Of a stretch of DNA of 64,000 bases, positions 3,701 through 26,277 are shown piece by piece. The translations under genes were made by a program, and so were the position numbers. The stretch spans positions 25,645-89,644 of the forward strand of contig CAZLBB010000002.1 in NCBI GenBank assembly GCA_964557415.1, written 5' to 3'. Below the pieces are notes generated by a model, which did not search any database, was not told the DNA's origin, and saw only the letters and a program-made list of their open reading frames with translations. How positions within the stretch are numbered: the stretch's first letter is position 1; each line of letters opens with the position of its first letter. The DNA comes from an uncultured Rhodospirillaceae bacterium. GTDB taxonomy: Bacteria > Pseudomonadota > Alphaproteobacteria > JAEULC01.

Positions 3701-3713
3701 AACGAGGCCAGCC

Positions 3714-4100
3714 ATGACGACGGTCAGCGAGCACAGCTTCACCCCGACCGCCATCTCGCCTGCCGACAAGCAGAATCTCGACGCGTTGCTGGAGGCACGC
3801 CATGCCCTCGCGCTGGCCGACGCCCAGTTGCGCGACCCCGCCTTCATCGATGCGATCGCCGACAAGGAGACGCGCTTCCGCGCTCGCGACACCTTCGCGA
3901 AGCTTCAGCCGGCAATCCTCGCCATCGACAACGCCCGCATCGAGATGATCGTCGCCAAGATGGCCGCCAGCAGCACGGAGCTGCGAGAAGCGACAAAGGA
4001 GCTCAAGGTGGCGCTGGCGAAGGTGCAACAGGTGTCCAGCCTGCTCGACACGATCACGCGGGTCCTGGGCGTGATCAGCAATTTCCTGGTCGTGTTCTAG
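3714..4100 (+). CDS. Hypothetical coiled-coil protein with hydrophobic/amphipathic C-terminal helix
   Basis: RBS-like GAGG upstream, 13 nt after the lipoprotein stop; C-terminus VSSLLDTITRVLGVISNFLVVF. Confidence 0.7.
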   Translation: MTTVSEHSFTPTAISPADKQNLDALLEARHALALADAQLRDPAFIDAIADKETRFRARDTFAKLQPAILAIDNARIEMIVAKMAASSTELREATKELKVALAKVQQVSSLLDTITRVLGVISNFLVVF

Positions 4101-4157
4101 ACCCGATGCCGGAGCCATCGCCGGGCCACTCGTGACGCCTGTCCTGGCTACCCGCGC

Positions 4158-9585: not shown

Positions 9586-9587
9586 CC

Positions 9588-9687
9588 CAGAGGTCAGAGG
9601 TCAGAGGGCAGATGCCAGATGTCAGAGGTCGAATGCCGGAACTCTCCTCGTCCTCTCTGACATCTGCCATCTGCCCTCTGACATCTG
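9588..9687. repeat. Inverted-repeat element built of 7-nt tandem units (CAGA[G/T]G[T/G/C])
   Basis: Six heptamers at 9588-9629 and five reverse-complement heptamers at 9653-9687; 9601-9627 pairs with 9655-9681 at 26 of 27 positions. Confidence 0.9.
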
Positions 9688-11333: not shown

Positions 11334-11480
11334 CGCAGGGATCGGGCCGCGCCCGCCTTGCCGGGCGCGCTGCTGCCGAACGTCGCCGCCCTTCGTCCGC
11401 ACGCCGTGGCCGCGATGTCACGGCGGCGACCGCATCAATCCGGAAATGCGCTCATTAACCTGTGATCGCGGATGACGACT

Positions 11481-11509
11481 TTGACATGCAATCGTCGCGG
11501 TCCTACCTT
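11481..11509 (+). promoter_or_regulatory. Putative sigma70 promoter of the TRAP operon
   Basis: TTGACA (11481-11486), 17-nt spacer, TACCTT (11504-11509). Confidence 0.6.
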
Positions 11510-11584
11510 CGGGCGACCCTCGTCGTGCTTGGGGGCAATGAATTGCGCCACAACAAGCGGCGCGCCTTAGGGAGGATTAACGTC

Positions 11585-12703: not shown

Positions 12704-12804
12704 ACGCGGCACCGACTTCCGCGGTGCGCCCGCCCTCGCGGCAGGCGCATCGCGGGCGCGGGTGCGCGTAACGCACCCGGTCGCTCTGGAGGGGAGGAGC
12801 GGAC

Positions 12805-13362
12805 GTGGCTGATCCGATACCGCGCGGCGTGGCCGGCGACATGCCGCCGCCGGCGCTGGTAGGGTTCGTGCGTGGCATCGACACCGTCGCCATCTGGAGC
12901 GGGCGCCTCTTCTGCTGGCTTGCCATCCCGCTCGTCCTCGGCCTGACCTACGAGGTCATCGCGCGGTATCTGTTCCACGCGCCCACGATCTGGGCCTTCG
13001 ACGTCACCTACATGCTGTATGGCAGCCACTTCATGCTGGGCGCCGCCTACACGCTCTACAGGGGCGGGCATATCCGCACCGACATCTTCTATCAGAACTG
13101 GTCGGTCCGCACGCGCGGCCTCGTCGACGCGGGACTTTATCTGTTCTTCTTCTTCCCCGGCATGATCTTCTTCTTCTGGATGGGCCTGCAAGAAGCGCTG
13201 CACGCGATCGACATCCGCGAGGTCTCCGACCAGAGCCCCTGGCGGCCGCCGCTCTACCCCTTCAAGACCGTAATTCCTATCGCAGCAGCCCTGCTCATGG
13301 TGCAAGGCACCTCGGAGTTCCTGAAAGCCGCCTATGCCGCGATGAAGGGCCGTCCTCTATGA
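12805..13362 (+). CDS. dctQ: TRAP transporter small permease
   Basis: Four-TM pattern, YEVIARYLFHAPTIWAFD, GHIRTDIFY. Confidence 0.9.
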   Translation: MADPIPRGVAGDMPPPALVGFVRGIDTVAIWSGRLFCWLAIPLVLGLTYEVIARYLFHAPTIWAFDVTYMLYGSHFMLGAAYTLYRGGHIRTDIFYQNWSVRTRGLVDAGLYLFFFFPGMIFFFWMGLQEALHAIDIREVSDQSPWRPPLYPFKTVIPIAAALLMVQGTSEFLKAAYAAMKGRPL

Positions 13363-14678
13363 GCGGCGAAATTCTGGGACTCGTTCTGCTCGGCGCCCTG
13401 CTGATCGGCATTTTCGCCGGGTTCCCGATCGCCTTCACTCTGATCGTCCTGTCGGTGGTCTTCGGCTATATCGGCATGGGCGAGACGGTCTTTTATCTGA
13501 TGGTGTTTCAGACCATCGGGTTGATGAAGGAGGAGACGCTTGCGGCTGTGCCCCTGTTCATCTTCATGGGGCATGTGCTGGAACAATCCGGGCTGATGGA
13601 GCGACTGTTCAAGTCGTTCCAGCTGATCCTCGCGCCGGTGCGCGGCTCGCTCTATCTCGGCGTGCTGCTGACGGCCACTCTCTTCGCCACGGCCACCGGG
13701 ATCATCGGCGCCTCGGTGACCGTCATGGGCATGATGGCGGCGCCGGCGATGATCAGGGCCGGCTACGACGCCAAGCTGTCGGCCGGCACGATCGCGGCCG
13801 GCGGCACGCTGGGCATCCTGATCCCGCCGAGCGTGATGCTGGTCGTGATGGGCCCGATCGTCGGCGTATCGATCATCAAGCTGTTCGCCGCGGCGCTGAT
13901 GCCCGGCCTGCTGCTGGCATGTCTCTATATCGGATACACGATGATCCGCAGCAATCTCGACCCGACACTCGGTCCGCCGCTGCCGCGCGACCAGTGGGCT
14001 ACGTCGGTCGGCCAAATGGTGCGGGAGTTCCTGTCGGGCATCGTGCCGATGGCGACGATCATGTTCGCCGCCCTCGGCAGCATCATCTTCGGCCTGGCGA
14101 CGCCGACCGAGGCGGCCGCCATGGGCGCAAGCGGCGCGCTGCTGCTGATGATCTTCTACGGACGGTTCTCGTTCCGCGCGATCCGAGACGCGTGCCTCAA
14201 CACGCTCGAGACATCCAGCCTGGTGCTGTTCCTGGCGGTCGCCTCGAACATCTACGGGTCGGTGTTTACGCGCCTCGGCACCAGCACGATGATCGCAGAC
14301 GCCATGCTGGCGCTCGACCTGCCGGTCACCGCCATGCTGATCGTGCTGATGGGCGTGATCTTCCTGCTGGGCTGGCCGCTGGAATGGCCGGCGATCATCT
14401 TCATCTTCCTGCCGATCTTCCTGCCGGTCGTGGAGGCCTTGAAAGTCGACCTGCTCTGGTTCAGTACGCTGGTCGCAGTCAACCTGCAGACGGCGTTCCT
14501 GTCGCCGCCGGTCGCCATGGCCGCCTACTACCTGAAGGCGGTCGCGCCCAAATGGGAACTCTCCAGCATCTATCGCGGCATGGTCGACTTCATGATCCTG
14601 CAGATGATCGGCTTGGCGATCGTGTTCTTCTATCCGCCGATCGCGCTCTGGCTGCCGACGGTGCTGTTCGGGAAGTAA
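13359..14678 (+). CDS. dctM: TRAP transporter large permease
   Basis: LAAVPLFIFMG, GTLGILIPPS, ATPTEAA, FLSPP; overlaps dctQ stop. Confidence 0.92.
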   Translation: MSGEILGLVLLGALLIGIFAGFPIAFTLIVLSVVFGYIGMGETVFYLMVFQTIGLMKEETLAAVPLFIFMGHVLEQSGLMERLFKSFQLILAPVRGSLYLGVLLTATLFATATGIIGASVTVMGMMAAPAMIRAGYDAKLSAGTIAAGGTLGILIPPSVMLVVMGPIVGVSIIKLFAAALMPGLLLACLYIGYTMIRSNLDPTLGPPLPRDQWATSVGQMVREFLSGIVPMATIMFAALGSIIFGLATPTEAAAMGASGALLLMIFYGRFSFRAIRDACLNTLETSSLVLFLAVASNIYGSVFTRLGTSTMIADAMLALDLPVTAMLIVLMGVIFLLGWPLEWPAIIFIFLPIFLPVVEALKVDLLWFSTLVAVNLQTAFLSPPVAMAAYYLKAVAPKWELSSIYRGMVDFMILQMIGLAIVFFYPPIALWLPTVLFGK

Positions 14679-14870
14679 GGCGAGGGGAGCGCCGGCAGGC
14701 CAAGGCTGGCGCTCCTCCATGCCAAAGCTGTCGCGCTCGCCCGTTTCGAGAATCCGCGCTTGAAAGGCACCGCAGGGCCGCTTTCCTATGTTGGGGGCGC
14801 AAGCCTGGATGTCGAGCGTCCATGAAGCCACGATGTGGACGGCGGCGCGCAGAATGGGAACGAGTGCAGC

Positions 14871-15722
14871 ATGAAACTGGCGAGCTACACGCTATCGGGC
14901 GGTGCCTCCTACGGCGTAGTGGAAGGCGACGGCGTGATCGACATCGGACGGCGGCTCGGCGCGCGAGCGTCCAGCCTGCGCGCGGCGATCGCGGCCGACG
15001 CCCTCGCAGAGATCGCCGACATGGCGCGCGGCGCGAAGACGGACTACGCGCTGGCTGAGGTCAAGCTGCTGCCGCCCTTGCCCGACGCCGGCAAGCTGAT
15101 CTGCGTCGGCCGCAACTACAAGGCCCATGTCGGCGAGATCGCCGGCGCGCCGCTGCCCAGGTTCCCGCGCCTGTTCGTGCGCTTCAACGACACCGTGGTC
15201 GGTCACGACAGCCCGATCACGCTGTCGAAGCTGTCGTCGCATTACGACTACGAGGGCGAGCTGGCGCTGGTGATCGGCAAGCACGGCCGCCACATTCCGC
15301 GGGAACGCGCGCTCGAGCATGTCTGCGGCTATTCCTGCTTCAACGAGGCCTGCTTTCGCGACTTCCAGTTCGAGCACTCGCTGACCGCCGGCAAGAACTT
15401 CGCCGCCAGCGGCTCGTTCGGTCCCTGGCTGGTCACCGCGGACGAGATTCCCGACCCGACGCAGCTCGAACTCCGTACGCGGCTCAACGGCGTCGAGATG
15501 CAGCACGCCAGAACCGACGGGATGATATTCGACATCCCCTACATCCTCGCCTACGTGTCCGGCTTCACGCCGCTCAGCCCCGGCGACGTGATCGTCACCG
15601 GCACGCCCGAAGGCGTCGGCTTCGTCCGCAAACCGCCCTTGTGGATGAAGGGAGGCGACACGGTCGAGGTGGAGATCTCTACGATCGGCGTGCTGCGGAA
15701 CAAGGTCGTGGCGGAGACGTGA
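14871..15722 (+). CDS. Fumarylacetoacetate hydrolase family protein
   Basis: CVGRNY, YDYEGELALVIG, GKNF, PGDVIVTGTPEGVG. Confidence 0.92.
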   Translation: MKLASYTLSGGASYGVVEGDGVIDIGRRLGARASSLRAAIAADALAEIADMARGAKTDYALAEVKLLPPLPDAGKLICVGRNYKAHVGEIAGAPLPRFPRLFVRFNDTVVGHDSPITLSKLSSHYDYEGELALVIGKHGRHIPRERALEHVCGYSCFNEACFRDFQFEHSLTAGKNFAASGSFGPWLVTADEIPDPTQLELRTRLNGVEMQHARTDGMIFDIPYILAYVSGFTPLSPGDVIVTGTPEGVGFVRKPPLWMKGGDTVEVEISTIGVLRNKVVAET

Positions 15723-15724
15723 CC

Positions 15725-16513
15725 ATGTCCCTGCCCTCCCCCCTGTTCGATCCCGCGCGCGAGGCGGCCCTGGTGACCGGCGCGGGCAACGGCATCGGCC
15801 GCGCCATCGCCAAGGCCCTGGTCGGCGAAGGTGTCAGGACCGTGTTCGCCGATCTGCACCAGGATGCCGTGGCCGCCGCGATTGCCGCTTCACCCCGGCC
15901 GGAGCTGGCCGTGCCCTGGGTCGGCGACCTGGCACGTCGCGACGCATACGACGCGCTGGCAGCCGATGCGCGTTCCGCCCTCGGCCGGGTGACCCATTTC
16001 GTCCATAGCGCCGCGCCGCCGAGACGGGAGGCCGACCACGCGCTGGCGGTGACAGACGAGAGCTGGGAGCGGATGCGCGCGGTCAATGTCGATGCCGGTT
16101 TCCATCTCGCCCGCGAGCTCGCGCGCCCGCTGATCGCCGCCCGCGAGCCCGGCTCGTTCCTGATGGTCACATCGCTGCACGCCGCGACGCCGCGCAACCT
16201 GCCGCACTACAGCACCGCCAAGGCGGCGCTGACGATGCTGGTGAAGGAGCTGGCGAAGACGCTGGGGCGCTTCGGAATCAGGGTCAACGCGCTGGTACCC
16301 GGCGCCATCGCCGGCGGCGGCTTCGTCGCCAATCCGGTGCTGGCACGGCATGTCCCGCTGGGCCGGCTCGGGCAGCCGGAAGACCTGGCGCCCATGGCCC
16401 TGGCCGTGCTGTCGAACCGCGTGTCGGCCTATGTGACCGGCGCCGAGATCGTCGTCGACGGCGGCATATCGCTGACCAACTGGTTCGATCCGCCGGCGCT
16501 CGATGGCTTGTGA
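15725..16513 (+). CDS. Short-chain dehydrogenase/reductase
   Basis: TGAGNGIG, YSTAK catalytic motif, VNALVPG, VDGG. Confidence 0.88.
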   Translation: MSLPSPLFDPAREAALVTGAGNGIGRAIAKALVGEGVRTVFADLHQDAVAAAIAASPRPELAVPWVGDLARRDAYDALAADARSALGRVTHFVHSAAPPRREADHALAVTDESWERMRAVNVDAGFHLARELARPLIAAREPGSFLMVTSLHAATPRNLPHYSTAKAALTMLVKELAKTLGRFGIRVNALVPGAIAGGGFVANPVLARHVPLGRLGQPEDLAPMALAVLSNRVSAYVTGAEIVVDGGISLTNWFDPPALDGL

Positions 16514-16527
16514 GCCGGATGCCCTCG

Positions 16528-16542
16528 CCCGCCGCAGGCGGG
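16528..16542. terminator. Hairpin between the SDR stop and the displaced mfd 3' fragment (probable pre-insertion convergent terminator)
   Basis: CCCGCC-GCA-GGCGGG stem-loop between two convergent stop codons; weak U-tract. Confidence 0.4.
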
Positions 16543-16552
16543 AAAGGACAAG

Positions 16553-16683
16553 ACTCACGCCGCAAGCTGCTTCAGCTCCCCCAGCAGCGTCGCCAGGCCC
16601 TTGAGGCGCGTCGGCGCCTCTTCCCAGTCGCGCTGGAAGACCACGCGCTGGTCGGGGCGGATCTTGGTCGTCGTGGCGTTGCG
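16553..16683 (-). repeat. 131-bp copy of the mfd 3' end including stop codon (att-like left junction)
   Basis: Identical by eye to 22793-22923 (ACTCACGCCGCAAGC...GTGGCGTTGCG), offset 6240 bp. Confidence 0.95.
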
Positions 16684-16708
16684 AGTTACGCCTGCGATCG
16701 GTCGCCTA

Positions 16709-17743
16709 TCACAGGGCGTGTGATCGCGAAGCGCCCGCGGCTCGTGGCAGTCTCAAACGACGAGAAGCACGCAACTTCCTTGTGTGGGACTTGCGGGCCG
16801 CCAACCGAGATTCATCGTGTCCGTTGAGGGACGTCCGCCTTTTCTTGATCTCTCGCTGCACCCAGTCGAAAAACGTCTGTGCGGCCGGTGACAGGGTGCT
16901 GGACGACGGAACGCAAAGAAAGAACGCGCGACGCTTCGTTGCACGCCGGCGAAACAGCGGTACCAGCGAGCCTTTCCACAGCAGTTGGCTGATTGCCGGC
17001 GGGCCCATTAGGGCGATTCCGAGTCCGTCCAGAGCGGCCTGAACCAAGTTGGTATAGGCGTTCACACGAATGCCACGCAACGGCTCGTCCAAGAAGATGC
17101 CCTGCTTCTTGAACCATACCTCCCATCTCGTATCGGGATCATATCGTCCCTCCAGATGCACCAGTCGGTGCAGCAACAGGTCCTTCGGCGATCTGGGTAC
17201 AGATGTACTGCGCAGATACGCCGGTGAGCACACGGGGAAGATACGCTCACGTACGAGGAACTTCGATTTGACACCAGGCCAGGATCCATCGCCGTAGCGG
17301 ATGGCAATGTCGACGCCGTCATTCGTGAGATCGAGGTACGAGTCCGACACTAGCAATTGAAGGTCGATGTCGCTGTGCAGCCGGCGAAACGTACCTATGC
17401 GCGGCAGTAACCAGTAGGTGGCAAAGCCGGTGGATGTGGTTACGGTCACGCGGTTCCGAGCATATGGGTTTCTTACCTTCTGCACGCCCTCGCGAATGCG
17501 ATCTAGGCCCCCGGCCACAGCCTCCACCAGCGTCTCTCCTTCCCGTGTGAGGCGTAGTGAACGGTGCTTGCGAACGAATAGCGCTACCTGCAGGAATTCT
17601 TCCAGCAGTTTGATCTGCTGGCTGACGGCCACACGCGAGACATTGAGCTCGGTCGCTGCGACGGTAAAGCTCAGGTGACGCGCAGCGACACCGAAGGTAG
17701 CGAGTGCCTTAAGCGGCAACGACCTTGGTGGCTGCCATCGCAT
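16709..17743 (-). CDS. LysR-family regulator, GcvA-like
   Basis: LKALATFGVAARHLSFTVAATELNVSRVAVSQQIKLLE helix-turn-helix; divergent from mttB-like gene. Confidence 0.9.
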   Translation of the reverse strand: MRWQPPRSLPLKALATFGVAARHLSFTVAATELNVSRVAVSQQIKLLEEFLQVALFVRKHRSLRLTREGETLVEAVAGGLDRIREGVQKVRNPYARNRVTVTTSTGFATYWLLPRIGTFRRLHSDIDLQLLVSDSYLDLTNDGVDIAIRYGDGSWPGVKSKFLVRERIFPVCSPAYLRSTSVPRSPKDLLLHRLVHLEGRYDPDTRWEVWFKKQGIFLDEPLRGIRVNAYTNLVQAALDGLGIALMGPPAISQLLWKGSLVPLFRRRATKRRAFFLCVPSSSTLSPAAQTFFDWVQREIKKRRTSLNGHDESRLAARKSHTRKLRASRRLRLPRAAGASRSHAL

Positions 17744-17844
17744 AAAGATATTCTTAACCTATGTCGTCACTTTTAAGCAAGTTGCCATGCGTGACACCGC
17801 TGCGTACGGTCCGCGAAAGTCGGAAATGCTCGCGGAGGAACCGT

Positions 17845-19374
17845 ATGTCGAGACGGGGCGCGGACACGGCGCAGGCGCGAGCGCAGCGGCGGCGAATTGC
17901 GGGCCGCGTTTCTGCCACTACCAATCGATTTTGGCGCACCATCCCCGCGTATGACCTGCTCGACGATGGGGCCGTCGACGCCATCCATGCCACGTCTCTG
18001 CGCATCCTAGAAAAAATCGGCATCGACTTCCGTGAGCCACAGGCGTTGGAGGACTGGCGCAATGCCGGAGCCATCGTCGACGGGCAGCGCGTGCGCATTC
18101 CGTCCTCCCTGCTGATGGCACTTGTCGGCCAGGCGCCGGCCGAATACGTGCAGCATGCCCGAAACCCAGAGCGTAGTGTTCGCATCGGCGGACCGCATAT
18201 GGCTTTCGCGCCCATCTACGGATCGCCCTACGTCCGCGACTTGACTGGCGAGCGCCGCTATGCGCGCCTCGAGGACTTCGAGAACTTCGTAAGGCTGGCC
18301 CACATGACGCCGGCGTTGAACATGTCGGGCGGTACCGTCTGCGAACCGACGGATGTTCCCGTTCCGAAACGGCATCTCGACATGCTGTACGCGCATATCC
18401 GGCTGACCGACAAGCCCTTCATGGGATCGGTCACGTCCGAGACGCGGGCGCAGGATTGCGTCGATATGTGCCGTATTGTCTTTGGCGACGAGTTCATCAA
18501 CCACAACACGGTGATGACCTCGCTCATCAATTGCAACTCGCCGCTGGTGTGGGACGCGAGCATGATCACGGTCATGCGAGTTTATGCGGCGAACAACCAA
18601 GCATGCCTGATTTCACCGTTCATCATGCAGGGAGCGAACACCCCAACCACGACGGCTGGCGCCATGGCGCAGCTGAACGCAGAAGGACTGGCCGGCGTCG
18701 CCTACACGCAGTTGGTGCGGCCCGGCGCCCCGGTCGTATATGGCGCCACACTGTCCACCGTGTCGATGCAATCCGGCGCGCCGATGTACGGCACAACCGA
18801 AACGCAACTGCTTATGTTTGCCACGGCCCAACTGGCACGGCGCTACCGAATCCCCATGCGAACCGGCGGGATGCGCAATGGCGCCAAGAACTGCGATGCG
18901 CAATCCGCGTTCGAATCCATCCAGACAATGCTTCCGGCGATGCTTGCCGGCGGTAATCTTTTCCTGCACTCGGCCGGCTGGCTCGAAAGCGGGCTGTCTG
19001 CCTGTTTCGCGAAATTCATGATGGATGTCGACCAGTTGACAATCCTTCAACGCATGATGGGTGGGCTCGAAATCAGCGAGGACAGCCTTGCCTTCGACGC
19101 GATCGCCGGCGTCGGCCCTGGCGGGCATTTTTTCGGTTCGGAGCACACGCTGCGCCACTATGAGGATGCCTTCTACGTGCCGGAGACGCCCGACAACAAC
19201 ACCTACGAGCAGTGGCTCGAAGACGGTGGGAAGGATATGCGCGATCGAGCGCTCGATCTCGCCAAGCGGAAATTGCAGGAATACGAACAGCCGCCCCTTG
19301 ACCCGGAGATCGATGCGCGCCTTGCTTCTTTCATTGCCCAGCGAAAGGCGGAACTGCCCGACGATGTCCGTTGA
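17845..19374 (+). CDS. Trimethylamine methyltransferase (MttB) family protein, non-pyrrolysine; probable glycine betaine:corrinoid methyltransferase
   Basis: GGAGG RBS; INCNSPLVWD, QLVRPGAPVVYG, HSAGWLESG, VGPGGHFFGSEHT motifs; no in-frame TAG. Confidence 0.88.
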   Translation: MSRRGADTAQARAQRRRIAGRVSATTNRFWRTIPAYDLLDDGAVDAIHATSLRILEKIGIDFREPQALEDWRNAGAIVDGQRVRIPSSLLMALVGQAPAEYVQHARNPERSVRIGGPHMAFAPIYGSPYVRDLTGERRYARLEDFENFVRLAHMTPALNMSGGTVCEPTDVPVPKRHLDMLYAHIRLTDKPFMGSVTSETRAQDCVDMCRIVFGDEFINHNTVMTSLINCNSPLVWDASMITVMRVYAANNQACLISPFIMQGANTPTTTAGAMAQLNAEGLAGVAYTQLVRPGAPVVYGATLSTVSMQSGAPMYGTTETQLLMFATAQLARRYRIPMRTGGMRNGAKNCDAQSAFESIQTMLPAMLAGGNLFLHSAGWLESGLSACFAKFMMDVDQLTILQRMMGGLEISEDSLAFDAIAGVGPGGHFFGSEHTLRHYEDAFYVPETPDNNTYEQWLEDGGKDMRDRALDLAKRKLQEYEQPPLDPEIDARLASFIAQRKAELPDDVR

Positions 19375-20431
19375 CAGCCGGGACAAACATCACGCGACCG
19401 CATCGCCGCAAGTCGAGTGCGATGATGTCTGGAAGGTCTTCGGTCGATCCACGTCGGCCGTGATCGATGCTCTGCGTCACGGCGTTTCGAAACAGGACGT
19501 GCGGGCCAGATACGATAGCGTCGTCGCCGTCGCCGGCGTTTCGCTCCGGATTCCGCGAGGCGAGATGCTCTGTGTCATGGGCCTGTCAGGTAGCGGAAAA
19601 TCGACCCTCCTGCGCATGATCAACCGCCTAATCGACCCAACCAGCGGGGCGGTGCGCATCGACGGTGAGGACATTGCGCGGCTCGATAGCGCCGCGCTGC
19701 GCCGCCTGCGATCACAGAAGATCGGCATGGTGTTCCAGCACATGGCGCTGTGGCCACACCGGACGATTCGCGACAACGTCGCCTACAGCCTGGAGGTTCG
19801 CGGCGTCTCGAAGAATGTCCGATATGAGGCTGCCAGTCGCGCGCTCGCTGAGGTCATGTTGTCCGGCTGGGAGAACCAGTATCCCGATGAGCTGTCAGGC
19901 GGGATGCAACAGCGCGTGGGCCTAGCGCGGGCCTTGGTCGGGGACCCGGACATTCTCCTCATGGACGAACCGTTCAGCGCCCTGGACCCGATCATTCGCA
20001 GCGAGCTGCAGGATCAGTTCGCCGCCTTCTCGGCCAAAGTCCGCAAGACGACGATCTTCATCACGCACGACCTCGAGGAAGCAATCAAGCTCGGGCATCG
20101 CGTGGCTATCATGAACGAGGGAAGGATCGAGCAGATCGGCACGCCCGTCGAGATTCTGGCCAACCCAAGCAACGACTATGTGGCGCGCTTCGTTCGAGGC
20201 ATCTCGCAGCTGCGCCAGCTGCGGGCCAGTCGCATGATCGATCGTAACGCCGCGATACCTGGCCCGCAGCCAGACGGAGAGCAACACTGTATCGACCCCG
20301 ATGCCGATTTGAAGACGGTTCTCGGACGTCTCGCGGACGACGGCTACGTCCTCGTCAAGGCAACAGGGCATGTGCTCGGCTGCATCACCATGCATTCAGC
20401 CATCAATTCGATCCGTCACTGTCTCGGTTAG
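19364..20431 (+). CDS. proV: Glycine betaine/proline ABC transporter ATP-binding protein
   Basis: MGLSGSGKST, LSGGMQQRVGLARAL, LMDEPFSALDP, ITHDLEEA. Confidence 0.88.
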   Translation: MSVDSRDKHHATASPQVECDDVWKVFGRSTSAVIDALRHGVSKQDVRARYDSVVAVAGVSLRIPRGEMLCVMGLSGSGKSTLLRMINRLIDPTSGAVRIDGEDIARLDSAALRRLRSQKIGMVFQHMALWPHRTIRDNVAYSLEVRGVSKNVRYEAASRALAEVMLSGWENQYPDELSGGMQQRVGLARALVGDPDILLMDEPFSALDPIIRSELQDQFAAFSAKVRKTTIFITHDLEEAIKLGHRVAIMNEGRIEQIGTPVEILANPSNDYVARFVRGISQLRQLRASRMIDRNAAIPGPQPDGEQHCIDPDADLKTVLGRLADDGYVLVKATGHVLGCITMHSAINSIRHCLG

Positions 20432-20462
20432 CAACCGGGATAATATATTCAAGCAGGCTCCC

Positions 20463-21449
20463 ATGAACTGGCATTGGCTTCTCGACCCGTTCTCCTTGAT
20501 ACAAGTCCCTCTCGGAGACTGGGCGCAGTCCCTCCTCGACTGGCTCGTGCAGAACCACCGCGAATTCTTCCAGTTGCTGAAGCAGCCGGTCCAATTTCTC
20601 CTGAACGCGTTCGAATCCGGCCTGCGAGCGGTTCCTCCGCTGGTCATGCTGCTCGTAATCTTCGGCGTCGCTTGGCAGGCGGGTGGACGGCGGGTCGGCA
20701 TCACCGCCCTTTCCTGCATTGTCGCGATCGGCCTGATCGGCGCCTGGACGAACGCGATGACGACCCTGGCGATCGTCCTGACTGCTGTCAGTCTCTGCGT
20801 TCTGATCGGAGTCCCGCTGGGGATCGTCGCATCGCAGAGCGATCGCTTCGAGCGCGTACTTCGGCCAATCCTCGATCTGATGCAGACGGTCCCGTCATTC
20901 GTCTACCTGGTGCCGGTGGTGATGCTCTTCGGTATCGGCAACGTGCCTGGCGTGATCGTGACGGTGTTCTATGCGATGCCGCCAGTGATCCGACTGACGT
21001 CCTTGGGCATAAGGCAGGTCCGCAGCGACTTGGTCGAGGCATCGGTCGCGTTCGGTGCCAGCCGTTCACAGTCGCTATTCGGCGTCCAGATCCCGCTGGC
21101 GATGCCGGTTATCATGGCCGGAGTGAACCAGACGGTCATGATGTCGCTGGCAATGACGGTCGTTGCCTCGATGATCTCCGTCACCGGACTTGGCCAGATG
21201 GTGCTGCGTGGCATCGGCCGGCTGGACATGTCGCTGGCGACTACCGGCGGGCTTGGCATCGTGCTTATGGCAGTCATGATCGACAGAATCTCGCAAGGCC
21301 TTGGACGATCGCGCCGAGAGCGCGGCGGACTGGCATGGTACCGGACCGGACCGGTGGGTCTGCTGGTGGCCTGCTGCCGTCGGCCGCGGCAGTTGGAGCA
21401 GTCACGGCTGCTCGAACCGACCGAGGGACGGAAGCCAGACTTACGCTAA
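20463..21449 (+). CDS. proW: Glycine betaine/proline ABC transporter permease
   Basis: LDLMQTVPSFVYLVP, EASVAFGA, GVNQTVMMSLAM; start uncertain. Confidence 0.88.
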   Translation: MNWHWLLDPFSLIQVPLGDWAQSLLDWLVQNHREFFQLLKQPVQFLLNAFESGLRAVPPLVMLLVIFGVAWQAGGRRVGITALSCIVAIGLIGAWTNAMTTLAIVLTAVSLCVLIGVPLGIVASQSDRFERVLRPILDLMQTVPSFVYLVPVVMLFGIGNVPGVIVTVFYAMPPVIRLTSLGIRQVRSDLVEASVAFGASRSQSLFGVQIPLAMPVIMAGVNQTVMMSLAMTVVASMISVTGLGQMVLRGIGRLDMSLATTGGLGIVLMAVMIDRISQGLGRSRRERGGLAWYRTGPVGLLVACCRRPRQLEQSRLLEPTEGRKPDLR

Positions 21450-21514
21450 CCGTAATCCTTTTCGACGTTCACTCGCGGCCAGGATTCGGGGACGATCGTC
21501 AGAGGTCGCAATGT

Positions 21515-21533
21515 CGGGCGAGACTCTCGCCCG
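21515..21533. other. Intergenic palindrome before proX (possible mRNA-stabilising hairpin)
   Basis: CGGGCGAGA-C-TCTCGCCCG. Confidence 0.45.
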
Positions 21534-21554
21534 CGCGATCGAGGGGGAGTATCG

Positions 21555-22565
21555 ATGACGCAGCATTCCAAGCGGTCGGCGTTCCTGGCGGGACTGATCG
21601 GAGTCGCAATGCTGGCATGCGCGCCAGCGGCGGAAGCTGCCGGTCCAGGCGAGGGAAAGACGATCCAGCCGATCTCGACCGGCAGGGCGGATCATTATTT
21701 CCAGCACTTCGTCGTGCAGATCGGGCTCGAACGCCTCGGTTACAAGGTGAAGCCACACCTGGAAGCGCAGTTCCCCGCGATGCATGTCGCAATTGGTCAG
21801 GGCGATGCTGACTACACCGCGGTTCATTGGGAAAAGCTGCACATCAAGTTCTACGAGAACGCTGGCGGCGAGAAGGCAATGCAGCGCGTCGGCGTCCTGA
21901 TCCCGGGTGTGTTGCAGGGGTACCTGATCGACAAGGTCACCGCGGACAAGCACAAGATCAGCAATCTCGGCCAGCTCAAGGATCCGGCTGTTGCGAAGCT
22001 TTTCGACTCAGCCGGCGACGGCAAGGCCCATCTGACGGGATGCAACCCCGGCTGGGGTTGCGAGCGCGTCATCGAGCATCAACTCGACGCCTACGGGCTG
22101 CGAGCGACGATAAAGCACGAGCAGGGTGAATACTTCGCGCTGATCGCCGACACGATCACGCGATACAAGGCCGGCAAGCCGATTTTCTACTACACTTGGA
22201 CGCCGCTGTGGGTCAGCTCGGTCTTGAAACCTGGGATCGATACGGTCTGGCTGGACGTTCCGTTCACCTCGCTGCCGGCGGAACAGGCCGGTGCGGAAAC
22301 CAAGCTGCCCGACGGCAGGAACCCGGGCTTCGTTCCTGATGCGATACGCGTGATGGCAAACAACAAGTTCCTGGCGGCTAATCCGGCCGCGAAGAAGTTT
22401 TTCGAGGTGGCGGCCCTGCCGATACAGGATGTCAACGCCGCGATCCTCCGCCAACAACAGGGCGAGAGCAAGGTCGAGCAGATCCGCGTGCATGCCGAGG
22501 AATGGGTTCGCGCAAACGAAGACACCTTCAAGAAGTGGGTCGCGGAGGCGACGACGGCGAAGTAG
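21555..22565 (+). CDS. proX: Glycine betaine/proline betaine-binding periplasmic protein
   Basis: Signal peptide; GCNPGWGC motif; three Trp positions of the ProX cation-pi box appear kept (HWEK, PGWG, YTWTP). Confidence 0.88.
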   Translation: MTQHSKRSAFLAGLIGVAMLACAPAAEAAGPGEGKTIQPISTGRADHYFQHFVVQIGLERLGYKVKPHLEAQFPAMHVAIGQGDADYTAVHWEKLHIKFYENAGGEKAMQRVGVLIPGVLQGYLIDKVTADKHKISNLGQLKDPAVAKLFDSAGDGKAHLTGCNPGWGCERVIEHQLDAYGLRATIKHEQGEYFALIADTITRYKAGKPIFYYTWTPLWVSSVLKPGIDTVWLDVPFTSLPAEQAGAETKLPDGRNPGFVPDAIRVMANNKFLAANPAAKKFFEVAALPIQDVNAAILRQQQGESKVEQIRVHAEEWVRANEDTFKKWVAEATTAK

Positions 22566-22792
22566 TGGGGACCGAGTTCATCATCTTTCGTGAGCGAGCC
22601 TCCTCCGGGTTTGTGCGTCTATTTGCTTCCCGTCCTTCCTCTCGTGAGGAGAGGGATAGCAAAGAAAGCGCCCGGATCTCAGGCCAAACCATCCATAGTG
22701 TTTCAGATTGACACGTTCTGCTTGTCGCATGGGAGCAAATCGCGGTATCCGGAGGAGTAATCGTCCCGATGAATACGGAGTGCCGTCGCCTC

Positions 22793-22923
22793 ACTCACGC
22801 CGCAAGCTGCTTCAGCTCCCCCAGCAGCGTCGCCAGGCCCTTGAGGCGCGTCGGCGCCTCTTCCCAGTCGCGCTGGAAGACCACGCGCTGGTCGGGGCGG
22901 ATCTTGGTCGTCGTGGCGTTGCG
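22793..22923 (-). repeat. 131-bp repeat forming the current mfd 3' end (att-like right junction)
   Basis: Identical to 16553-16683. Confidence 0.95.
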
Positions 22924-25900
22924 CGAGATGTAGCGCACGAGCTTCTCGGGCCGGGCGAACTTGTTGTCGCGGAAGGCGATCACGGCTCCCTTCGGACCCG
23001 CCTCGACCTTCTCCACGCCGGCGTCGCGGCACAGGCGCTTGATGGCGATGATCTCGAGCAGGTTCTCGACCTCCTGCGGCAGCTTGCCGAAGCGGTCGAT
23101 CAGTTCGGCGGCGAAGGCGTCGATCTCCTGCCGGTCGACCAGCAGCGCGATGCGGCGGTAGAGCGCCAGGCGCACGTCGAGGTCGGGCACGTAGCCCTCG
23201 GGGATCAGCACCGGCGTGCCGAGCGCGATCTGCGGCGTCCATCCGGCCGCCGGCACCCGCGCCGCCGCGCCCTTGGCCTCGGCCACCGCTTCCTCCAGCA
23301 TCTGCTGGTAGAGTTCGATGCCGACCTCGCGGATATGGCCTGACTGCTCCTCGCCCAGCAGGTTGCCGGCGCCGCGGATGTCGAGGTCGTGGCTCGCCAG
23401 CGTAAAGCCGGCGCCGAGCGTGTCGAGCGTCTGCATGACCTCGAGCCGGCGCGTCGCCGCCGGGGTCGGCGCCTTCTCGCCCGGCAGCGTCAGGTAGGCG
23501 TAGGCGCGGATCTTGCCGCGGCCGACGCGGCCGCGCAGCTGGTAGAGCTGCGACAGGCCGAACATGTCGGCGCGGTGCACGATGATCGTGTTGGCGGTCG
23601 GGATGTCGAGGCCGGACTCGATGATGTTGGTCGACAGCAGCACCTCGTAGGCGCCGTCGTAGAATCCCTCCATCGCCTTCTCGAGCTCGCGCCCGCCCAT
23701 CTGCCCGTGCGCGACAGCGACCTTCACCTCGGGCACCAGGCGCCGGAGGCGCTCCTCGACCTTGGGCAGGTCCTCGATGCGCGGGCAGACGTAGAACACC
23801 TGCCCACCGCGATGCTGCTCGCGCAGGATCGCCTCGCGGACCACCACCGGGTCGTAGGGCAGCACGAAGGTGCGCACGGCCAGGCGGTCGACCGGAGGAG
23901 TAGCGATCAGGCTCATTTCGCGCACGCCCGACAGCGCGAGCTGCAGCGTGCGCGGGATCGGCGTCGCGGTCAGCGTCAGCACGTGCACGTCGGCGCGCAG
24001 CTGCTTCAGGCGTTCCTTCTGCTTGACGCCGAAATGCTGCTCCTCGTCGACGATCAGGAGGCCAAGGTTCTTGAACGCGATGCCCTTGCCGAGCAGTGCG
24101 TGTGTGCCGATGACGATGTCGATCCTGCCGTCGGCCAGCTCCGACTTGATGCGGCTCGCCTCCTTCGCCGCGACCAGGCGCGACAGCTGCGCCAGGCGCA
24201 CCGGCAGGCCGGCGAATCGCTGCGCGAAGGCGCGATAGTGCTGGCGTGCCAGCAATGTGGTCGGCACCACCACGGCCACCTGCGTGCCCGACATGGCGGC
24301 GATGAAGGCGGCGCGCAACGCCACCTCGGTCTTGCCGAAGCCCACGTCGCCGCAGATCAGCCGGTCCATCGGCTTGCCCGACGTCAGGTCCGACAGCGTG
24401 TCGCCGATCGCGCGCTCCTGGTCCTCGGTCTCGGCCCAAGGGAAACGGGCGCAGAACTCCTGGTACATGCCGTCGGGCGGCTCCAGCACCTCGCCTTCGC
24501 GCACCTGCCGCTCGGCGGCGATGCGGATCAGCTCGTCCGCCATGTCCTTCAGGCGCTGCTTGACCCGCGCGCGGCGCGCCTGCCAGGCAGCGCCGCCCAG
24601 CCGGTCGAGCACCGCGCCCGACTCGGCCGAGCCGTAGCGCGACAGCACCTCGAGGTTCTCCACCGGCACGAACAGCTTGTCGCCGCCGGCATAGAGCACG
24701 CGCAGGCAGTCATGCGGCGCGCCGGCCACCTCCAAAGCGACCAGCCCGTCGTACTGGCCGATGCCGTGGTCGACATGGACGACGAAGTCGCCTTCGCTGA
24801 GCGCCGACAGCTCACCGATGATGCGGTCGGCGCGCTTCTTGCGCCGCGACGGCCGCGCCAGCCGTTCGCCCAGGATGTCCTGCTCGCCGATCACCGCCAG
24901 GCCGGGTGCCGCGAAGCCGTGCTCGATCGGCAGCACGGCCAGCGCCGTCGTGCCCGGGGGCAGCGCCTCGGCCTCGGGCCAGGCCTCGACCGATTTCTGT
25001 GCCGCGAGCCCGTGGCTGCGCAGCAGCGTGCCCAGGCGCTCGCGCGCGCCCAGCGTGTAGGCGGCGACCACCGTCCGCCGCCCTGCCGCGATCTCGGCGG
25101 CGATGTGCTCGCGCACCGTGTCGAGCAGCCGCCCGTCCGGCCGCGCGCGCGCCTCGGCGAAGTCGCGGCCAAGTCTGCCGCCGGCGTCGATTCCCGCGCC
25201 TTCCGGTGGCACGAACGGCGCCAACTCGAACACCGCACGCGCGCCGAGCGCTGCCGCCAGTTCGCCGCTGCTCAGGTACAGGCTGTCGGGCGGCAGCGGG
25301 CGGTAGACCGGTGCGCCCTCCGCCGCGCCGGGCGCGGCGGCGATCTCGCGCCGCTGGCGATAGAACTCGGCGATCTGGTTCTGCCGCTCGGCCGCGGCGT
25401 CGGCCACGCCGTGGTCCAGGCTCAGCGGCGCTCGCGGCAGGTAGTCGAACAGCGTCTCGAGCGTCTCGGCGAACAGCGGCAGCCAGTGCTCCATGCCGGC
25501 GTGCCAGTGCCCGGCGGTGACGGCGGCGTAGAGCGGGTCGTCGGACGCGTTGGTGCCGAAGGCAGCGCGGTAGCCGGTGCGGAAGCGATGGATCGACGCC
25601 TGGTCCAGCATCACCTCGCTGACCGGCTGCAGGCGAAATGCCTCGCGCCGTTCGCCCGAGCGCTGCGTCATCGGGTCGAAGGCGCGCACGCCCTCCAGCA
25701 CGTCGCCGAACAGGTCGAGGCGCAGCGGCTCGTCCGTGCCCGGCGGGAAGACGTCGACGATGCCGCCACGCTGGGCGTATTCGCCGGCCTCGCGCACCGT
25801 GCCGGCGCGGCGATAGCCGTTGCGCGCCAGGAACGCGAACATCGCCTCCGCATCGAGCTTCTCGCCCGCGCGCACGGCGAACACCGCACCCTCGAAGCTC

Positions 25901-26277
25901 GCGCGCGCCGGCACGCGCTGCAAGAGGGCATTGACCGTGGTCAGGACCGCGCAGGGCCCCGATGGCTGCGCGGCGCGTTCGCTTGCCGCCAAATCGCCCA
26001 GCGCCGCGATCCGCCGGCTGACCACCTCGCCGTTCGGCGAGACCCGGTCGTAGGGCAGGCAGTCCCAGGCCGGCAGCGAGACGACCTTGAGGCCTGGCGC
26101 GAAGAAGGCCAGCCCCTGCTCCAGCTTGGCGAGGCGGGCATCGTCGCGCGCGACGTGCAGGACGGGCGCGCCACGCCGCAGCGCCAGCGCCGCCAGCACC
26201 ATCGCGTCGAAGCCTTCGGGCACGCCACCGATCGTTTCCCGTCCGGCGGCGAGATCGATGTTATCCAGGAAATTCAA
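22795..26277 (-). CDS. mfd: Transcription-repair coupling factor
   Basis: 1160 aa; CarD-like domain, CGDVGFGKTEVA, DEEQHFG, TATPIPRT, QLRGRVGR, C-terminal TRCF domain; TTG start. Confidence 0.97.
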   Translation of the reverse strand: MNFLDNIDLAAGRETIGGVPEGFDAMVLAALALRRGAPVLHVARDDARLAKLEQGLAFFAPGLKVVSLPAWDCLPYDRVSPNGEVVSRRIAALGDLAASERAAQPSGPCAVLTTVNALLQRVPARASFEGAVFAVRAGEKLDAEAMFAFLARNGYRRAGTVREAGEYAQRGGIVDVFPPGTDEPLRLDLFGDVLEGVRAFDPMTQRSGERREAFRLQPVSEVMLDQASIHRFRTGYRAAFGTNASDDPLYAAVTAGHWHAGMEHWLPLFAETLETLFDYLPRAPLSLDHGVADAAAERQNQIAEFYRQRREIAAAPGAAEGAPVYRPLPPDSLYLSSGELAAALGARAVFELAPFVPPEGAGIDAGGRLGRDFAEARARPDGRLLDTVREHIAAEIAAGRRTVVAAYTLGARERLGTLLRSHGLAAQKSVEAWPEAEALPPGTTALAVLPIEHGFAAPGLAVIGEQDILGERLARPSRRKKRADRIIGELSALSEGDFVVHVDHGIGQYDGLVALEVAGAPHDCLRVLYAGGDKLFVPVENLEVLSRYGSAESGAVLDRLGGAAWQARRARVKQRLKDMADELIRIAAERQVREGEVLEPPDGMYQEFCARFPWAETEDQERAIGDTLSDLTSGKPMDRLICGDVGFGKTEVALRAAFIAAMSGTQVAVVVPTTLLARQHYRAFAQRFAGLPVRLAQLSRLVAAKEASRIKSELADGRIDIVIGTHALLGKGIAFKNLGLLIVDEEQHFGVKQKERLKQLRADVHVLTLTATPIPRTLQLALSGVREMSLIATPPVDRLAVRTFVLPYDPVVVREAILREQHRGGQVFYVCPRIEDLPKVEERLRRLVPEVKVAVAHGQMGGRELEKAMEGFYDGAYEVLLSTNIIESGLDIPTANTIIVHRADMFGLSQLYQLRGRVGRGKIRAYAYLTLPGEKAPTPAATRRLEVMQTLDTLGAGFTLASHDLDIRGAGNLLGEEQSGHIREVGIELYQQMLEEAVAEAKGAAARVPAAGWTPQIALGTPVLIPEGYVPDLDVRLALYRRIALLVDRQEIDAFAAELIDRFGKLPQEVENLLEIIAIKRLCRDAGVEKVEAGPKGAVIAFRDNKFARPEKLVRYISRNATTTKIRPDQRVVFQRDWEEAPTRLKGLATLLGELKQLAA

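Follow-up and report, generated by a model that had tools for sequence, protein, structure and literature searches.

Insertions with long target duplication are a pattern whose description and criteria are given by Furuta, Abe & Kobayashi (2010, NAR; PMC2853133) and Nobusato et al. (2000, Gene 259:99). They are recorded in many bacteria with no mechanism assigned to them, are shorter than 20 kb, contain no integrase or transposase, and are bounded by direct repeats of 46 to ~420 bp, well beyond the target duplications of transposons (PMC2853133). A route via homologous recombination has been put forward as an alternative (PMC3457768). Two other processes give a similar product. Islands that use tyrosine recombinases to target gene 3' ends (tRNA/tmRNA, guaA, prfC and others) restore the gene, leave the displaced end at the far side, and show direct repeats and a lower GC. 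Similarly, in Campbell-type single-crossover integration a circular DNA with one region of homology ends up flanked by direct repeats of that region.

At the locus described here, DNA has been inserted behind the 3' end of mfd, the gene for the transcription-repair coupling factor, in a stretch of 64 kb from an uncultured Rhodospirillales-like alphaproteobacterium that was analysed as a whole (the window). It is very probably an insertion with long target duplication, formed by integrase-independent recombination or repair, and not a site-specific element. As such it adds a clean case to a known, poorly understood pattern and does not constitute a new kind of element. The name of this pattern is missing from the preliminary description of the locus.

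The duplicated mfd end and the empty site

The two copies of the repeat are identical at 131 of 131 positions, lie 6240 nt apart from start to start, and each comprise the final 43 codons of mfd, stop codon among them, and 2 nt more. They form the sole perfect long repeat within the window, and identity over 131 nt by chance is effectively impossible. Similarity breaks off abruptly at all four repeat edges. Because the terminal 131 nt of the host's mfd are present on both sides of the insert, the gene stays intact, and its product contains all Mfd domains (TRCF, CarD_TRCF_RID, UvrB_inter, DEAD, Helicase_C and MFD_D3). The enclosed DNA is compositionally foreign, with a GC of 0.609 against 0.674 in the left 10 kb and 0.715 in the right 10 kb, and a GC3 of 0.67-0.79 in its genes against 0.86-0.94 in the flanking host genes. 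The insert ends show neither inverted nor direct terminal repeats above the chance level, the inserted segment gives no match in Rfam, and no microhomology is seen at junction 16683/16684, where an assessment would require the donor sequence. The window contains no tRNA genes; it also encodes a ComEC homologue. The coordinates of all features are collected in Table 1.

Table 1. Features of the insertion and its flanks, with window coordinates
Feature	Coordinates	Strand	Basis
SDR-family oxidoreductase gene	15722..16513	+	Pfam adh_short_C2, adh_short; synteny with L081, L082
Ancestral mfd/SDR intergenic spacer, imperfect palindrome	16514..16552		RNA fold
Orphan mfd 3' end (last 42 codons, stop, 2 nt)	16553..16683	-	Identical to 22793-22923
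Inserted segment, 6109 bp (DNA between the repeats)	16684..22792		Absent from L081, L082; GC3 shift
GcvA-like LysR-family regulator, divergent from operon	16709..17743	-	Pfam HTH_1, LysR_substrate
MttB-superfamily methyltransferase without pyrrolysine, 509 aa (database call)	17845..19374	+	PF06253 E 3e-206
ProV-type ABC ATPase	19367..20431	+	TIGR01186 proV, Pfam ABC_tran
ProW-type permease	20463..21449	+	Pfam BPD_transp_1; ORF open from 20370
ProX-type (OpuAC) periplasmic substrate-binding protein	21555..22565	+	NF008334, Pfam OpuAC
Non-coding right end of insert, 227 bp, GC 0.55	22566..22792		Between convergent proX and mfd
Repeat copy completing functional mfd	22793..22923	-	Repeat identity, mfd ORF
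mfd (transcription-repair coupling factor), intact, 1160 aa	22795..26277	-	Pfam; 92% identical to P0002

The closest relatives are two MAGs (L081 and L082) whose Mfd is 92% identical to that of the window. In both, mfd is followed directly by the same convergent 262-aa SDR gene and then by DctMQP. Window positions 26999-22797 align to 6052-10271 of L081, and positions 16683-15633 align to 10145-11161 as one block that spans the orphan tail and the SDR gene, so that beyond the insert the contig rejoins the L081 order in perfect synteny. The empty site in these relatives demonstrates that the insertion is real and recent. The repeat is 100% host-type and differs from the L081 mfd tail at ~10 of 131 positions; the two copies show no difference from each other (95% upper bound 2.3% divergence), and 15.6% of mfd third codon positions differ between the window and L081. 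Up to the very edge of the gene-completing copy, mfd remains 92-95% identical to that of L081, and therefore no imported diverged mfd block is visible.

The SDR gene, for which the listed ORF begins at 15641 and the likely start is that in Table 1, was convergent with mfd in the ancestral arrangement, as judged from the gene order of the relatives. The outer hairpin stem of the palindrome between them extends into the mfd stop codon. Folded as RNA on the minus strand, which is the mfd strand, positions 16505-16565 reach -35.9 kcal/mol (z -4.2); with DNA parameters the same hairpin is unexceptional (z -1.2). The spacer is missing from L081, in which the mfd and SDR stop codons lie 6 nt apart. 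These data bear out what the preliminary description had read from the locus, namely an exact duplication of the mfd end 6240 bp apart around 6.1 kb of lower GC, an insertion at the mfd 3' end with the outer (left) copy as the displaced original, a hairpin that separates the orphan tail from the SDR stop, and an original convergent SDR/mfd junction. Gene content 3' of mfd differs in every relative examined, with an FAD oxidoreductase in L168, DSBA in L169-L171 and, by gene list only, in the P0007 contig, and Golvesin and RHS in L083. The site behind mfd has gained genes repeatedly in this clade.

The inserted operon

Five genes fill the island, and their only Pfam matches are LysR, MTTB, ABC_tran, BPD_transp_1 and OpuAC. 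The mttB-like ORF is open and uninterrupted from 17761; its product scores 686 bits against PF06253 and 295 bits, under the cut-off of 525, against TIGR02369, the model of the pyrrolysine-containing trimethylamine methyltransferase. Among solved structures the nearest chains are 4yyc (E 2e-166), 2qne and 9yce; 9yce is named 'Glycine betaine methyltransferase'. Of the transporter subunits, ProV (TIGR01186, 339.5 bits, cut-off 326.6) and ProX (NF008334, 431.7 bits, cut-off 215) exceed their thresholds and ProW (NF008196, 407.9 bits) falls just under that of 439; the N-terminus of ProX is signal-peptide-like. The regulator scores 269 bits against the NCBIfam GcvA subfamily, under the cut-off of 288. 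No gene for a corrinoid protein or a reductive activase is present within the insert. By homology the cargo is a candidate uptake and demethylation module for a glycine-betaine-like quaternary amine.

The LysR protein has an atypical C-terminal extension of ~40 aa that reaches to 25 nt from the repeat, whereas its counterparts in L084 and L087 (309 and 315 aa) terminate soon after a common REIKKRR motif, and DNA homology to L084 ends at 16836. The right end contains no ORF and has no similarity to the other loci examined or to the mfd tail; two terminator-like hairpins (22594-22614 on the plus strand and 22689-22670 on the minus strand) are consensus matches only.

The closest relative of the cluster is in L084 (MttB 86% identical), followed by L087 (71%). 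The five-gene order is kept in L087 and the first four genes in L084, where the contig ends inside proW. The nearest operon relative is only 78% identical in DNA and does not adjoin mfd. The clusters of L084 and L087 neighbour genes for a MoCo dehydrogenase, an FMN oxidoreductase and a membrane protein, and their ends differ from those of the insert. These contexts are unrelated and non-mobile, and the operon is therefore not a dedicated mobile element. As a consequence of the insertion, lysR would now read on into the stranded mfd tail and the former hairpin, and mfd would end facing proX. The 131-nt repeats would permit RecA-dependent precise loss, restoring the empty site, or tandem amplification.

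Gene-tail duplications elsewhere and the origin of the insertion

A census of 167 related loci (2.2 Mb) for dispersed direct repeats of at least 100 nt within contigs yielded three repeats, all of which are gene 3'-tail duplications around integrase-less inserts. In L024, a 32-kb contig, the mfd tail is duplicated over 209 nt (88% identical) around an insert with a transglutaminase-like gene, with no hairpin at the duplication. In L021, a complete genome, it is the recG tail (130 nt, 86% identical) around an insert with a DUF1353 gene, for which L020 provides the empty site. In L014 it is a methyltransferase tail (107 nt, 85% identical) around an insert with a higBA pair. All three repeats end at the stop codon plus 0 to ~20 nt. 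The L021 case concerns another genus and another gene than the mfd insertion. Of the seven changes private to its gene-contiguous copy, six fall in the 25 nt next to the stop (~3e-4 under uniform positions), the end of the RecG protein is unchanged, and the orphan copy retains the outgroup state. This pattern indicates that a recG end came in together with the insert, and such an import is a mark of homologous recombination.

It is highly improbable that the arrangement is an assembly artefact or a population mixture, in which the chromosome would be empty and the 6240-bp unit a separate circle or part of another strain, threaded in via the 131 nt. The window apparently stems from a contig of 111.5 kb from an uncultured organism, a graph with k < 131 would leave a loop on a 131-nt node ambiguous, and clear chimeras at the mfd end exist in related collections, as an inverted copy in L147, whose differences leave the encoded tail nearly unchanged, and as an internal join in L158. 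However, the novel junctions 16683/16684 and 22792/22793 must both exist in the reads for any assembler, the contig returns to the same genome, and independent analogues occur in a complete genome and in a 32-kb contig. The earlier caveat on k-mer length is weak, as 131 is neither a standard k nor k-1 (neither 127 nor 141). A mixture, too, presupposes that foreign operon and host mfd tail are linked on one molecule, and the biology would be nearly the same. Least probable of all is an ancestral operon that the relatives lost by recombination between the repeats. Such loss would leave exactly the site seen in L081 and L082, but the island differs from host genes in GC3, the operon is missing in all relatives examined (Mfd 78-92% identical), its nearest homologues sit in other genomic contexts, and the orphan copy, although free to drift, has not diverged. 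Site-specific integration is also very unlikely. Here the insert would be the remnant or passenger of an element with a tyrosine or serine recombinase that used the mfd 3' end as attB and itself supplied the gene-restoring tail. The restored gene, the far-side displaced end and the repeat stopping at the stop codon are the geometry of islands that target 3' ends, and the second mfd-tail duplication in L024 and the repeated gene gain behind mfd would agree with it. Against this, Pfam finds no recombinase or transposase among the five island ORFs, as the preliminary description had stated for an integrase, and no gap in the island exceeds 227 bp, so that an integrase gene does not fit; nor is a recombinase found among the window ORFs scanned, which cover part of the window. 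A tail supplied by an element should be diverged, the cluster relatives have no mfd tail and no common ends, and no old orphan tails are left at older module boundaries. The same geometry with unrelated cargo at recG and at a methyltransferase gene argues against an mfd-specific recombinase. In E. coli the mfd tail is found at 5427 places in 5426 genomes, and a literature search found no report of an mfd attachment site, in line with the earlier remark that mfd is not known as a described target. The suggestion that an element, decayed or mobilised in trans, used a new attB is therefore unsupported: the insert is a catabolic and transport operon only, with non-mobile relatives and a host-type repeat.

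Two mechanisms are live, Campbell-type homologous integration, which was the second option of the preliminary description, and de novo duplication of the target. The latter, somewhat unlikely, would involve foreign linear DNA joined illegitimately at both ends to a staggered break, or copied in when a stalled fork switches template. The new strand would leave the chromosome 2 nt beyond the mfd stop, where the hairpin has its foot, and return 131 nt upstream, so that both repeat copies would be the recipient's own sequence. One event would then yield 131/131 identity, host-type copies and abrupt edges with no diverged mfd block, and foreign DNA next to a repeat that is native throughout agrees with capture directly from another species. 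One junction lies within the outer stem of a hairpin that is strong at the RNA level, lysR lacks its normal end and has 152 bp of unplaced sequence there, as expected for an illegitimate end, and the documented pattern likewise has no assigned mechanism. However, de novo duplication gives no reason to end at a stop codon (here at +2 nt, and approximately so in the three analogues), the hairpin is unexceptional as DNA and has no counterpart in L024, and the imported gene end of L021 is not produced by this model.

Campbell-like, RecA-dependent one-sided recombination is tentatively favoured over de novo duplication, at slightly less than even confidence, and taken as a whole the explanation built on it is the best available, with a probability of about 0.5. 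A conspecific donor fragment would have carried the operon directly behind mfd, including the last 131 nt of mfd. Homology to the recipient would have been confined to the mfd side, because the region downstream of mfd varies between lineages. The fragment ends would have been joined illegitimately, giving junction 16683/16684, and a single RecA crossover within the 131-nt homology would of itself place a copy of that homology on either side of the insert, in direct orientation. A homology of 131 nt is sufficient for RecA. The imported gene end of L021 may resemble such an outcome, and its support for homologous recombination is by analogy. Against the Campbell-like route, at least two events are needed (within the species the operon must first reach its place by mfd and then be transferred), no donor was found that carries the operon behind mfd without the duplication, and the metagenome collection gave no match to an exact 30-mer from the repeat. 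The absent imported mfd block is compatible with a conspecific donor and equally with no donor tail.

Comparison with known systems

The insertion differs from islands that target 3' ends in having no recombinase, in a repeat that is far longer than the usual cores and perfectly host-type, in the non-mobile relatives of its cargo, and in sharing its geometry with inserts at unrelated genes. In comparison with Campbell integration, no replicon, vector or circle is seen, and a circle would need end-joining of a conspecific chromosomal fragment. Illegitimate integration of DNA that a cell has taken up usually deletes recipient DNA and does not duplicate it. Homology-facilitated and double illegitimate recombination (Hulter & Wackernagel 2008, cited in PMC12359135) involve no element-encoded enzymes, as here, and a possible likeness lies in one homologous anchor with one illegitimate junction, or in two illegitimate ones; the ComEC homologue in the window would fit such uptake. 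The cargo resembles systems of non-pyrrolysine MttB methyltransferases and ProVWX/OpuA-type betaine transporters in its PF06253, ProX and ProV scores and in chain 9yce; it differs from them in having no corrinoid protein or reductive activase gene.

The closest likeness is to the insertions with long target duplication. The published cases emerged when genomes were screened for restriction-modification genes, and double-strand cuts made by their cargo have been invoked for them, whereas the operon inserted here serves transport and catabolism and encodes no nuclease. Here the genome used for comparison belongs to a different species (Mfd 92%), in place of a strain of the same species, and the repeat, unlike those published, is nearly all coding and ends 2 nt past a stop codon. 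Common to both are a related genome with one repeat copy and no insert, repeats that touch gene 3' ends, a repeat length in the same range and, often, an atypical composition of the insert; amplification and loss via the repeats have been proposed for the published cases (PMC2853133).

The duplicated mfd tail and the enclosed operon

The mfd gene encodes an ORF with the full Mfd domain set (see table). A repeat search identifies a direct repeat of 131 nt whose two copies are 100% identical and lie 6240 nt apart from start to start, exactly as the preliminary description had stated for the mfd end. As mfd ends at 22795, the repeat holds 42 codons from the end of the gene, its stop codon and 2 nt beyond it. 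One copy completes the gene, while the other lies orphaned beside an SDR gene. This is the sole perfect long repeat in the 64-kb window, where it occurs in these two copies only, the other repeat families being diverged paralogues. It is neither a tRNA gene nor a known attachment site, and no tRNA genes were found in the 64-kb window. Among the paralogues are two adjacent hybrid histidine kinases on the minus strand (dCache, PAS, HisKA, HATPase and receiver domains), whose common stretches of about 300 nt are 71-77% identical (repeat families D1-D3).

Features of the window and gene-tail duplications at other loci
Feature	Sequence	Position	Strand	Remarks
mfd tail, orphan copy	window	16553-16683
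LysR regulator, GcvA-like	window	16709-17743	minus
MttB-family methyltransferase	window	17845-19374	plus	PF06253, E 3e-206
ProV	window	19367-20431	plus
ProW	window	20463-21449	plus
ProX	window	21555-22565	plus
mfd tail, gene-contiguous copy	window	22793-22923
mfd	window	22795-26277	minus	1160-aa ORF
Hybrid histidine kinase	window	36345-38900	minus
Hybrid histidine kinase	window	39068-44059	minus
mfd-tail duplication (L024)	MAG Kiloniellaceae OFTM340, JAJFGP010000180.1	13237-14977		209 nt, 88% identical, 1532 nt apart
recG-tail duplication (L021)	Algihabitans albus ac2, complete genome, NZ_CP159482.1	6500-7619		130 nt, 86% identical
Methyltransferase-tail duplication (L014)	MAG Thalassospiraceae, CAYFMP010000075.1	3009-3878		107 nt, 85% identical

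The enclosed segment (16684-22792) is 6109 bp long with a GC content of 0.609; in the adjoining 10 kb on either side it is 0.674 and 0.715. The lower GC content noted earlier for this segment therefore stands, and it extends to third codon positions (GC3 of 0.67-0.79 in the insert genes, and 0.86-0.94 in the genes on either side). At a GC content of 0.70, the repeat has host composition. As RNA of the mfd strand, the spacer between the SDR stop codon and the left copy is predicted to form a strong hairpin (-35.9 kcal/mol, z -4.2). The idea of a stall at this hairpin is a weak point only, as the fold is unexceptional under DNA parameters and the analogous mfd-tail duplication L024 has no hairpin.

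The insert is filled by five ORFs, separated from each other and from the repeats by non-coding gaps of 25, 101, 31 (up to the likely proW start), 105 and 227 bp. With no gap above 227 bp, a recombinase gene could not be accommodated; no tyrosine or serine recombinase was found in the island, nor in the subset of other window ORFs that was scanned. The MttB homologue scores 295.5 bits against the pyrrolysine trimethylamine methyltransferase model TIGR02369 (cut-off 525) and contains no internal stop codon. Assignment to the pyrrolysine MttB equivalog was rejected on this sub-cut-off score and the lack of an in-frame amber codon, which leaves Pfam MTTB as its sole family assignment. Among solved structures the nearest chains are 4yyc, 2qne and 9yce, of which 9yce is named a glycine betaine methyltransferase. 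With NCBIfam models ProX scores 431.7 (cut-off 215) and ProV, with a subfamily model, 339.5 (cut-off 326.6), while ProW falls slightly under its cut-off (407.9 vs 439). The cargo can be read as a regulated module that would import and demethylate a quaternary amine resembling betaine, both the substrate and the methyl acceptor being putative, and the organism probably gains such an osmolyte as a methyl-group or nitrogen source.

The ends of the insert show no terminal inverted or direct repeats beyond chance (28-30% of shuffles score equally), and no Rfam family matches within it. A transposon or insertion sequence was rejected, as the terminal matches are at chance level and there is no transposase domain. 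The two non-coding ends have no similarity to any of the loci compared.

The empty site and relatives of the operon

The species-representative genome collection holds no Mfd above 66% identity to that of the window. A protein search recovered an Mfd that is 92% identical (P0002) and present in two MAGs (loci L081 and L082), which at this level of identity are a different species. In both, 6 nt separate mfd from a convergent SDR gene, beyond which come DctM, DctQ and DctP; the window has these same genes on the left side of its orphan tail. Using blastn, window 26999-22797 aligns to L081 6052-10271 and window 16683-15633 to L081 10145-11161. The L081 mfd tail (10145-10273) aligns to both window copies, and L081 lacks the insert. 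These alignment blocks identify the orphan tail and SDR gene as the ancestral junction, with 6.1 kb missing from the relative. The earlier proposal of an insertion at the mfd 3' end, with the gene restored and no integrase, is thus borne out by the empty sites and the recombinase-free insert. That the outer copy marks the original convergent junction with the SDR gene is upheld by the single L081 block that holds both. Rather than the same genes without a duplication, L081 and L082 have no operon and one tail.

The two window copies have about 10 differences from the L081 tail in common and none between them. Divergence between the copies is below 2.3% (95% confidence), and mfd third codon positions differ by 15.6% between the window and L081. 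It follows that the insertion is young, or that gene conversion keeps the copies identical. Exact-sequence look-ups for the window Mfd and ProX returned no record, and an exact 30-mer from the repeat had no match in metagenome contigs; in a metagenome scan the best match to the Mfd C-terminus was 72% identical.

The nearest MttB homologue (86% identical) is carried by three Logan contigs of up to 5 kb (L084-L086), which are 78% identical to the window at the DNA level and in which the genes lie away from mfd. They have the lysR-mttB-proV-proW order of the window, next to a molybdopterin dehydrogenase gene. A more distant relative, L087 (MttB 71% identical), has all five genes of the cluster, flanked on one side by an FMN oxidoreductase gene and on the other by a gene for a membrane protein. 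No mfd tail is present on L084 or L087, the flanks of which differ from those of the window, and a plasmid collection gave only distant proVWX matches (~69% identity). Judged from its gene content and relatives, the insert does not qualify as a dedicated mobile element. Homology of L084 to the window ends at 16836. The window LysR is about 40 aa longer than its L084 and L087 homologues, its frame reaching to 25 nt from the repeat. As the homologues end earlier, the left 152 bp are not the normal downstream region of lysR, and this stretch is as expected of an illegitimate junction. The same 152 bp (16684-16835), which encode the extension of about 40 codons, match no locus compared.

The region behind mfd differs among all lineages examined. 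In the window it consists of SDR, fumarylacetoacetate hydrolase and DctMQP genes (9528-16513), and directly behind mfd there is an FAD oxidoreductase gene in L168, Golvesin and RHS genes in L083, and DSBA in L169-L171 and in a P0007-bearing contig for which the gene list was used. Within the clade, new genes have repeatedly been added here. Older orphan mfd tails at the earlier module boundaries of the window, L081 and L083 were not found. The gene sets behind mfd appear nested, with the newest genes nearest to mfd. The fumarylacetoacetate-hydrolase-family gene of the window (14835-15722) is intact at 295 aa, and in L081 and L082 it is cut to a 96-aa ORF (L081 11072-11362), window 15080-15633 having no counterpart.

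Duplicated gene tails at other loci

The preliminary description had called for mfd 3' ends in related genomes to be surveyed for duplications, and a search of 164 mfd loci for a second tail copy yielded one solid further case, L024. Next, 167 loci (2.2 Mb) were searched for dispersed repeats of at least 100 nt and at least 85% identity, with tandem arrays, contig-end repeats and palindromes set aside. The remainder consists of three within-contig direct repeats, all of which have the geometry seen in the window, namely a duplicated gene 3' tail around an integrase-less insert. In each (L024, L021 and L014) the edge of the repeat lies at the stop codon plus 0 to ~20 nt.

The L024 insert is 1.3 kb long, with a GC content of 0.58 vs 0.66, and contains a transglutaminase-like gene (13853-14698) and no integrase; its downstream orphan copy carries an in-frame stop codon. 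In L021 about 42 codons of recG and the stop codon are repeated around a DUF1353 gene (6727-7386), and the corresponding site is empty in a relative (L020, 7470-7640). The L014 insert is a higB-higA toxin-antitoxin pair (3443-3721 and 3132-3509, minus strand) next to the methyltransferase gene (3769-4683), and similarity between the copies begins at the stop codon. Two short JGI metagenome contigs were rejected as mfd cases and are most likely assembly chimeras. One (L147, 68-773) has an inverted tail copy of 90% identity in place of the mfd body, with differences that hardly alter the encoded tail. The other (L158, 1-1124) has an internal join of a tail fragment onto mid-mfd at 98% identity.

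The last 321 nt of E. coli mfd were found at 5427 places in 5426 genomes. One genome has this tail at two places, and five places are on plasmid-typed records. Since duplications also occur at recG and a methyltransferase gene, and E. coli has about one tail per genome, the phenomenon is general to gene 3' ends in these bacteria and not specific to mfd. A role for mfd as a general hotspot is unsupported, as one solid extra case in 164 loci is insignificant when set against the events at other genes. The literature searched does not describe mfd as an attachment site.

Origin of the repeat and comparison with a known class

The L021 duplication can be polarised with its empty relative L020. Of 7 changes private to the recG-contiguous copy, six fall no more than 25 nt from the stop codon, a clustering with a chance of about 3e-4 under uniform positions. 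These changes leave the end of the protein unaltered and the orphan copy retains the outgroup state at the same sites, carrying 11 private changes of its own that are scattered along the repeat. The L021 insert therefore came with its own recG end, through recombination inside homologous tail sequence. If the tail is where recombination takes place, the edge of the repeat falls at the stop codon because homology between donor and recipient stops there.

The window structure is compatible with a Campbell-type integration, which we favour at a probability of roughly 0.45. A conspecific donor fragment carrying the mfd tail and the operon would have had its ends joined illegitimately, and a single RecA crossover within the 131 nt would then have integrated the joined fragment. 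Such an integration would account for the edge at the stop codon and, by analogy, fits the imported gene end of L021. It requires a donor state, with the operon behind mfd, of which no example or donor molecule was found. As the window copies are identical, a signal of the L021 type cannot exist there. No imported, diverged mfd block adjoins the repeat, so the donor tail, if any, came from the same lineage. The window also encodes a ComEC/Rec2-type competence protein (Pfam Competence and DUF4131, 55549-57783, minus strand), which is compatible with DNA uptake and no proof of transformation.

Duplication of 131 nt of the target de novo, during break repair or template switching, would need a single event and leads directly to perfect, host-type repeats; it does not predict an edge at the stop codon, and we regard it as somewhat unlikely. 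An island mobilised by its own integrase is at odds with the lack of a recombinase in the island and with cluster relatives that have neither common ends nor an mfd tail. The decayed or trans-mobilised element on a new attB that was proposed earlier has likewise found no support, and a recombinase acting in trans on the mfd 3' end is very improbable: the insert holds cargo only, the relatives of the cluster are non-mobile, the repeat is perfect and host-type, and an identical geometry is seen at unrelated target genes. The probability that the duplication is an assembly artefact is slighter still, as this would need reads linking the operon to the mfd tail at both sides. An ancestral operon that the relatives lost fits neither the composition of the insert nor a repeat with no divergence, and can be given hardly any credence.

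Tail-restoring duplications around integrase-less cargo might, at a stretch, have been left by some general, as yet uncharacterised process through which Alphaproteobacteria acquire genes, a reading based on four cases at three genes in about 2.3 Mb; we consider this improbable. Cargo behind a conserved gene would spread by means of the last 100-200 nt of that gene, which would serve as an 'attachment site' for host recombination, with the repeat always trimmed at the stop codon and the site behind mfd as a recurrent landing place. If so, of the four cases that in the window would be the youngest and also the cleanest, seen at a stage when divergence had yet to begin.

The insertion in the window shows that an entire catabolic and transport operon, together with its regulator, can be placed behind an essential-type housekeeping gene without element-encoded machinery and leave the gene intact, and the remaining 131-nt repeat makes the gain reversible or amplifiable. 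Such events would escape island-finding tools that rely on integrases, tRNA genes or transposases. [quoted passage not shown] The class is defined by direct repeats of >30 bp, an insert of <20 kb, no mobility genes and a related genome in which the site is unoccupied; repeat lengths in the published cases run from 46 to about 420 bp, these cases came from screens of restriction-modification genes, and the mechanism is unresolved (Furuta 2010; PMC2853133). A later paper adds a homologous-recombination pathway (PMC3457768). The window has a repeat of 131 nt, an insert of 6109 bp without mobility genes, and empty sites in L081 and L082. In contrast to the published insertions, its cargo is a transport and methyltransferase operon and not a restriction-modification system. 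Restriction-modification cargo is a property of the published screens rather than of the pattern itself, and from this small census the pattern would appear to reach beyond restriction-modification genes and naturally competent pathogens. The structure in the window represents a fresh case of a known, poorly understood class, with a cargo that is unusual for the class and a repeat that is unusually clean and undiverged.
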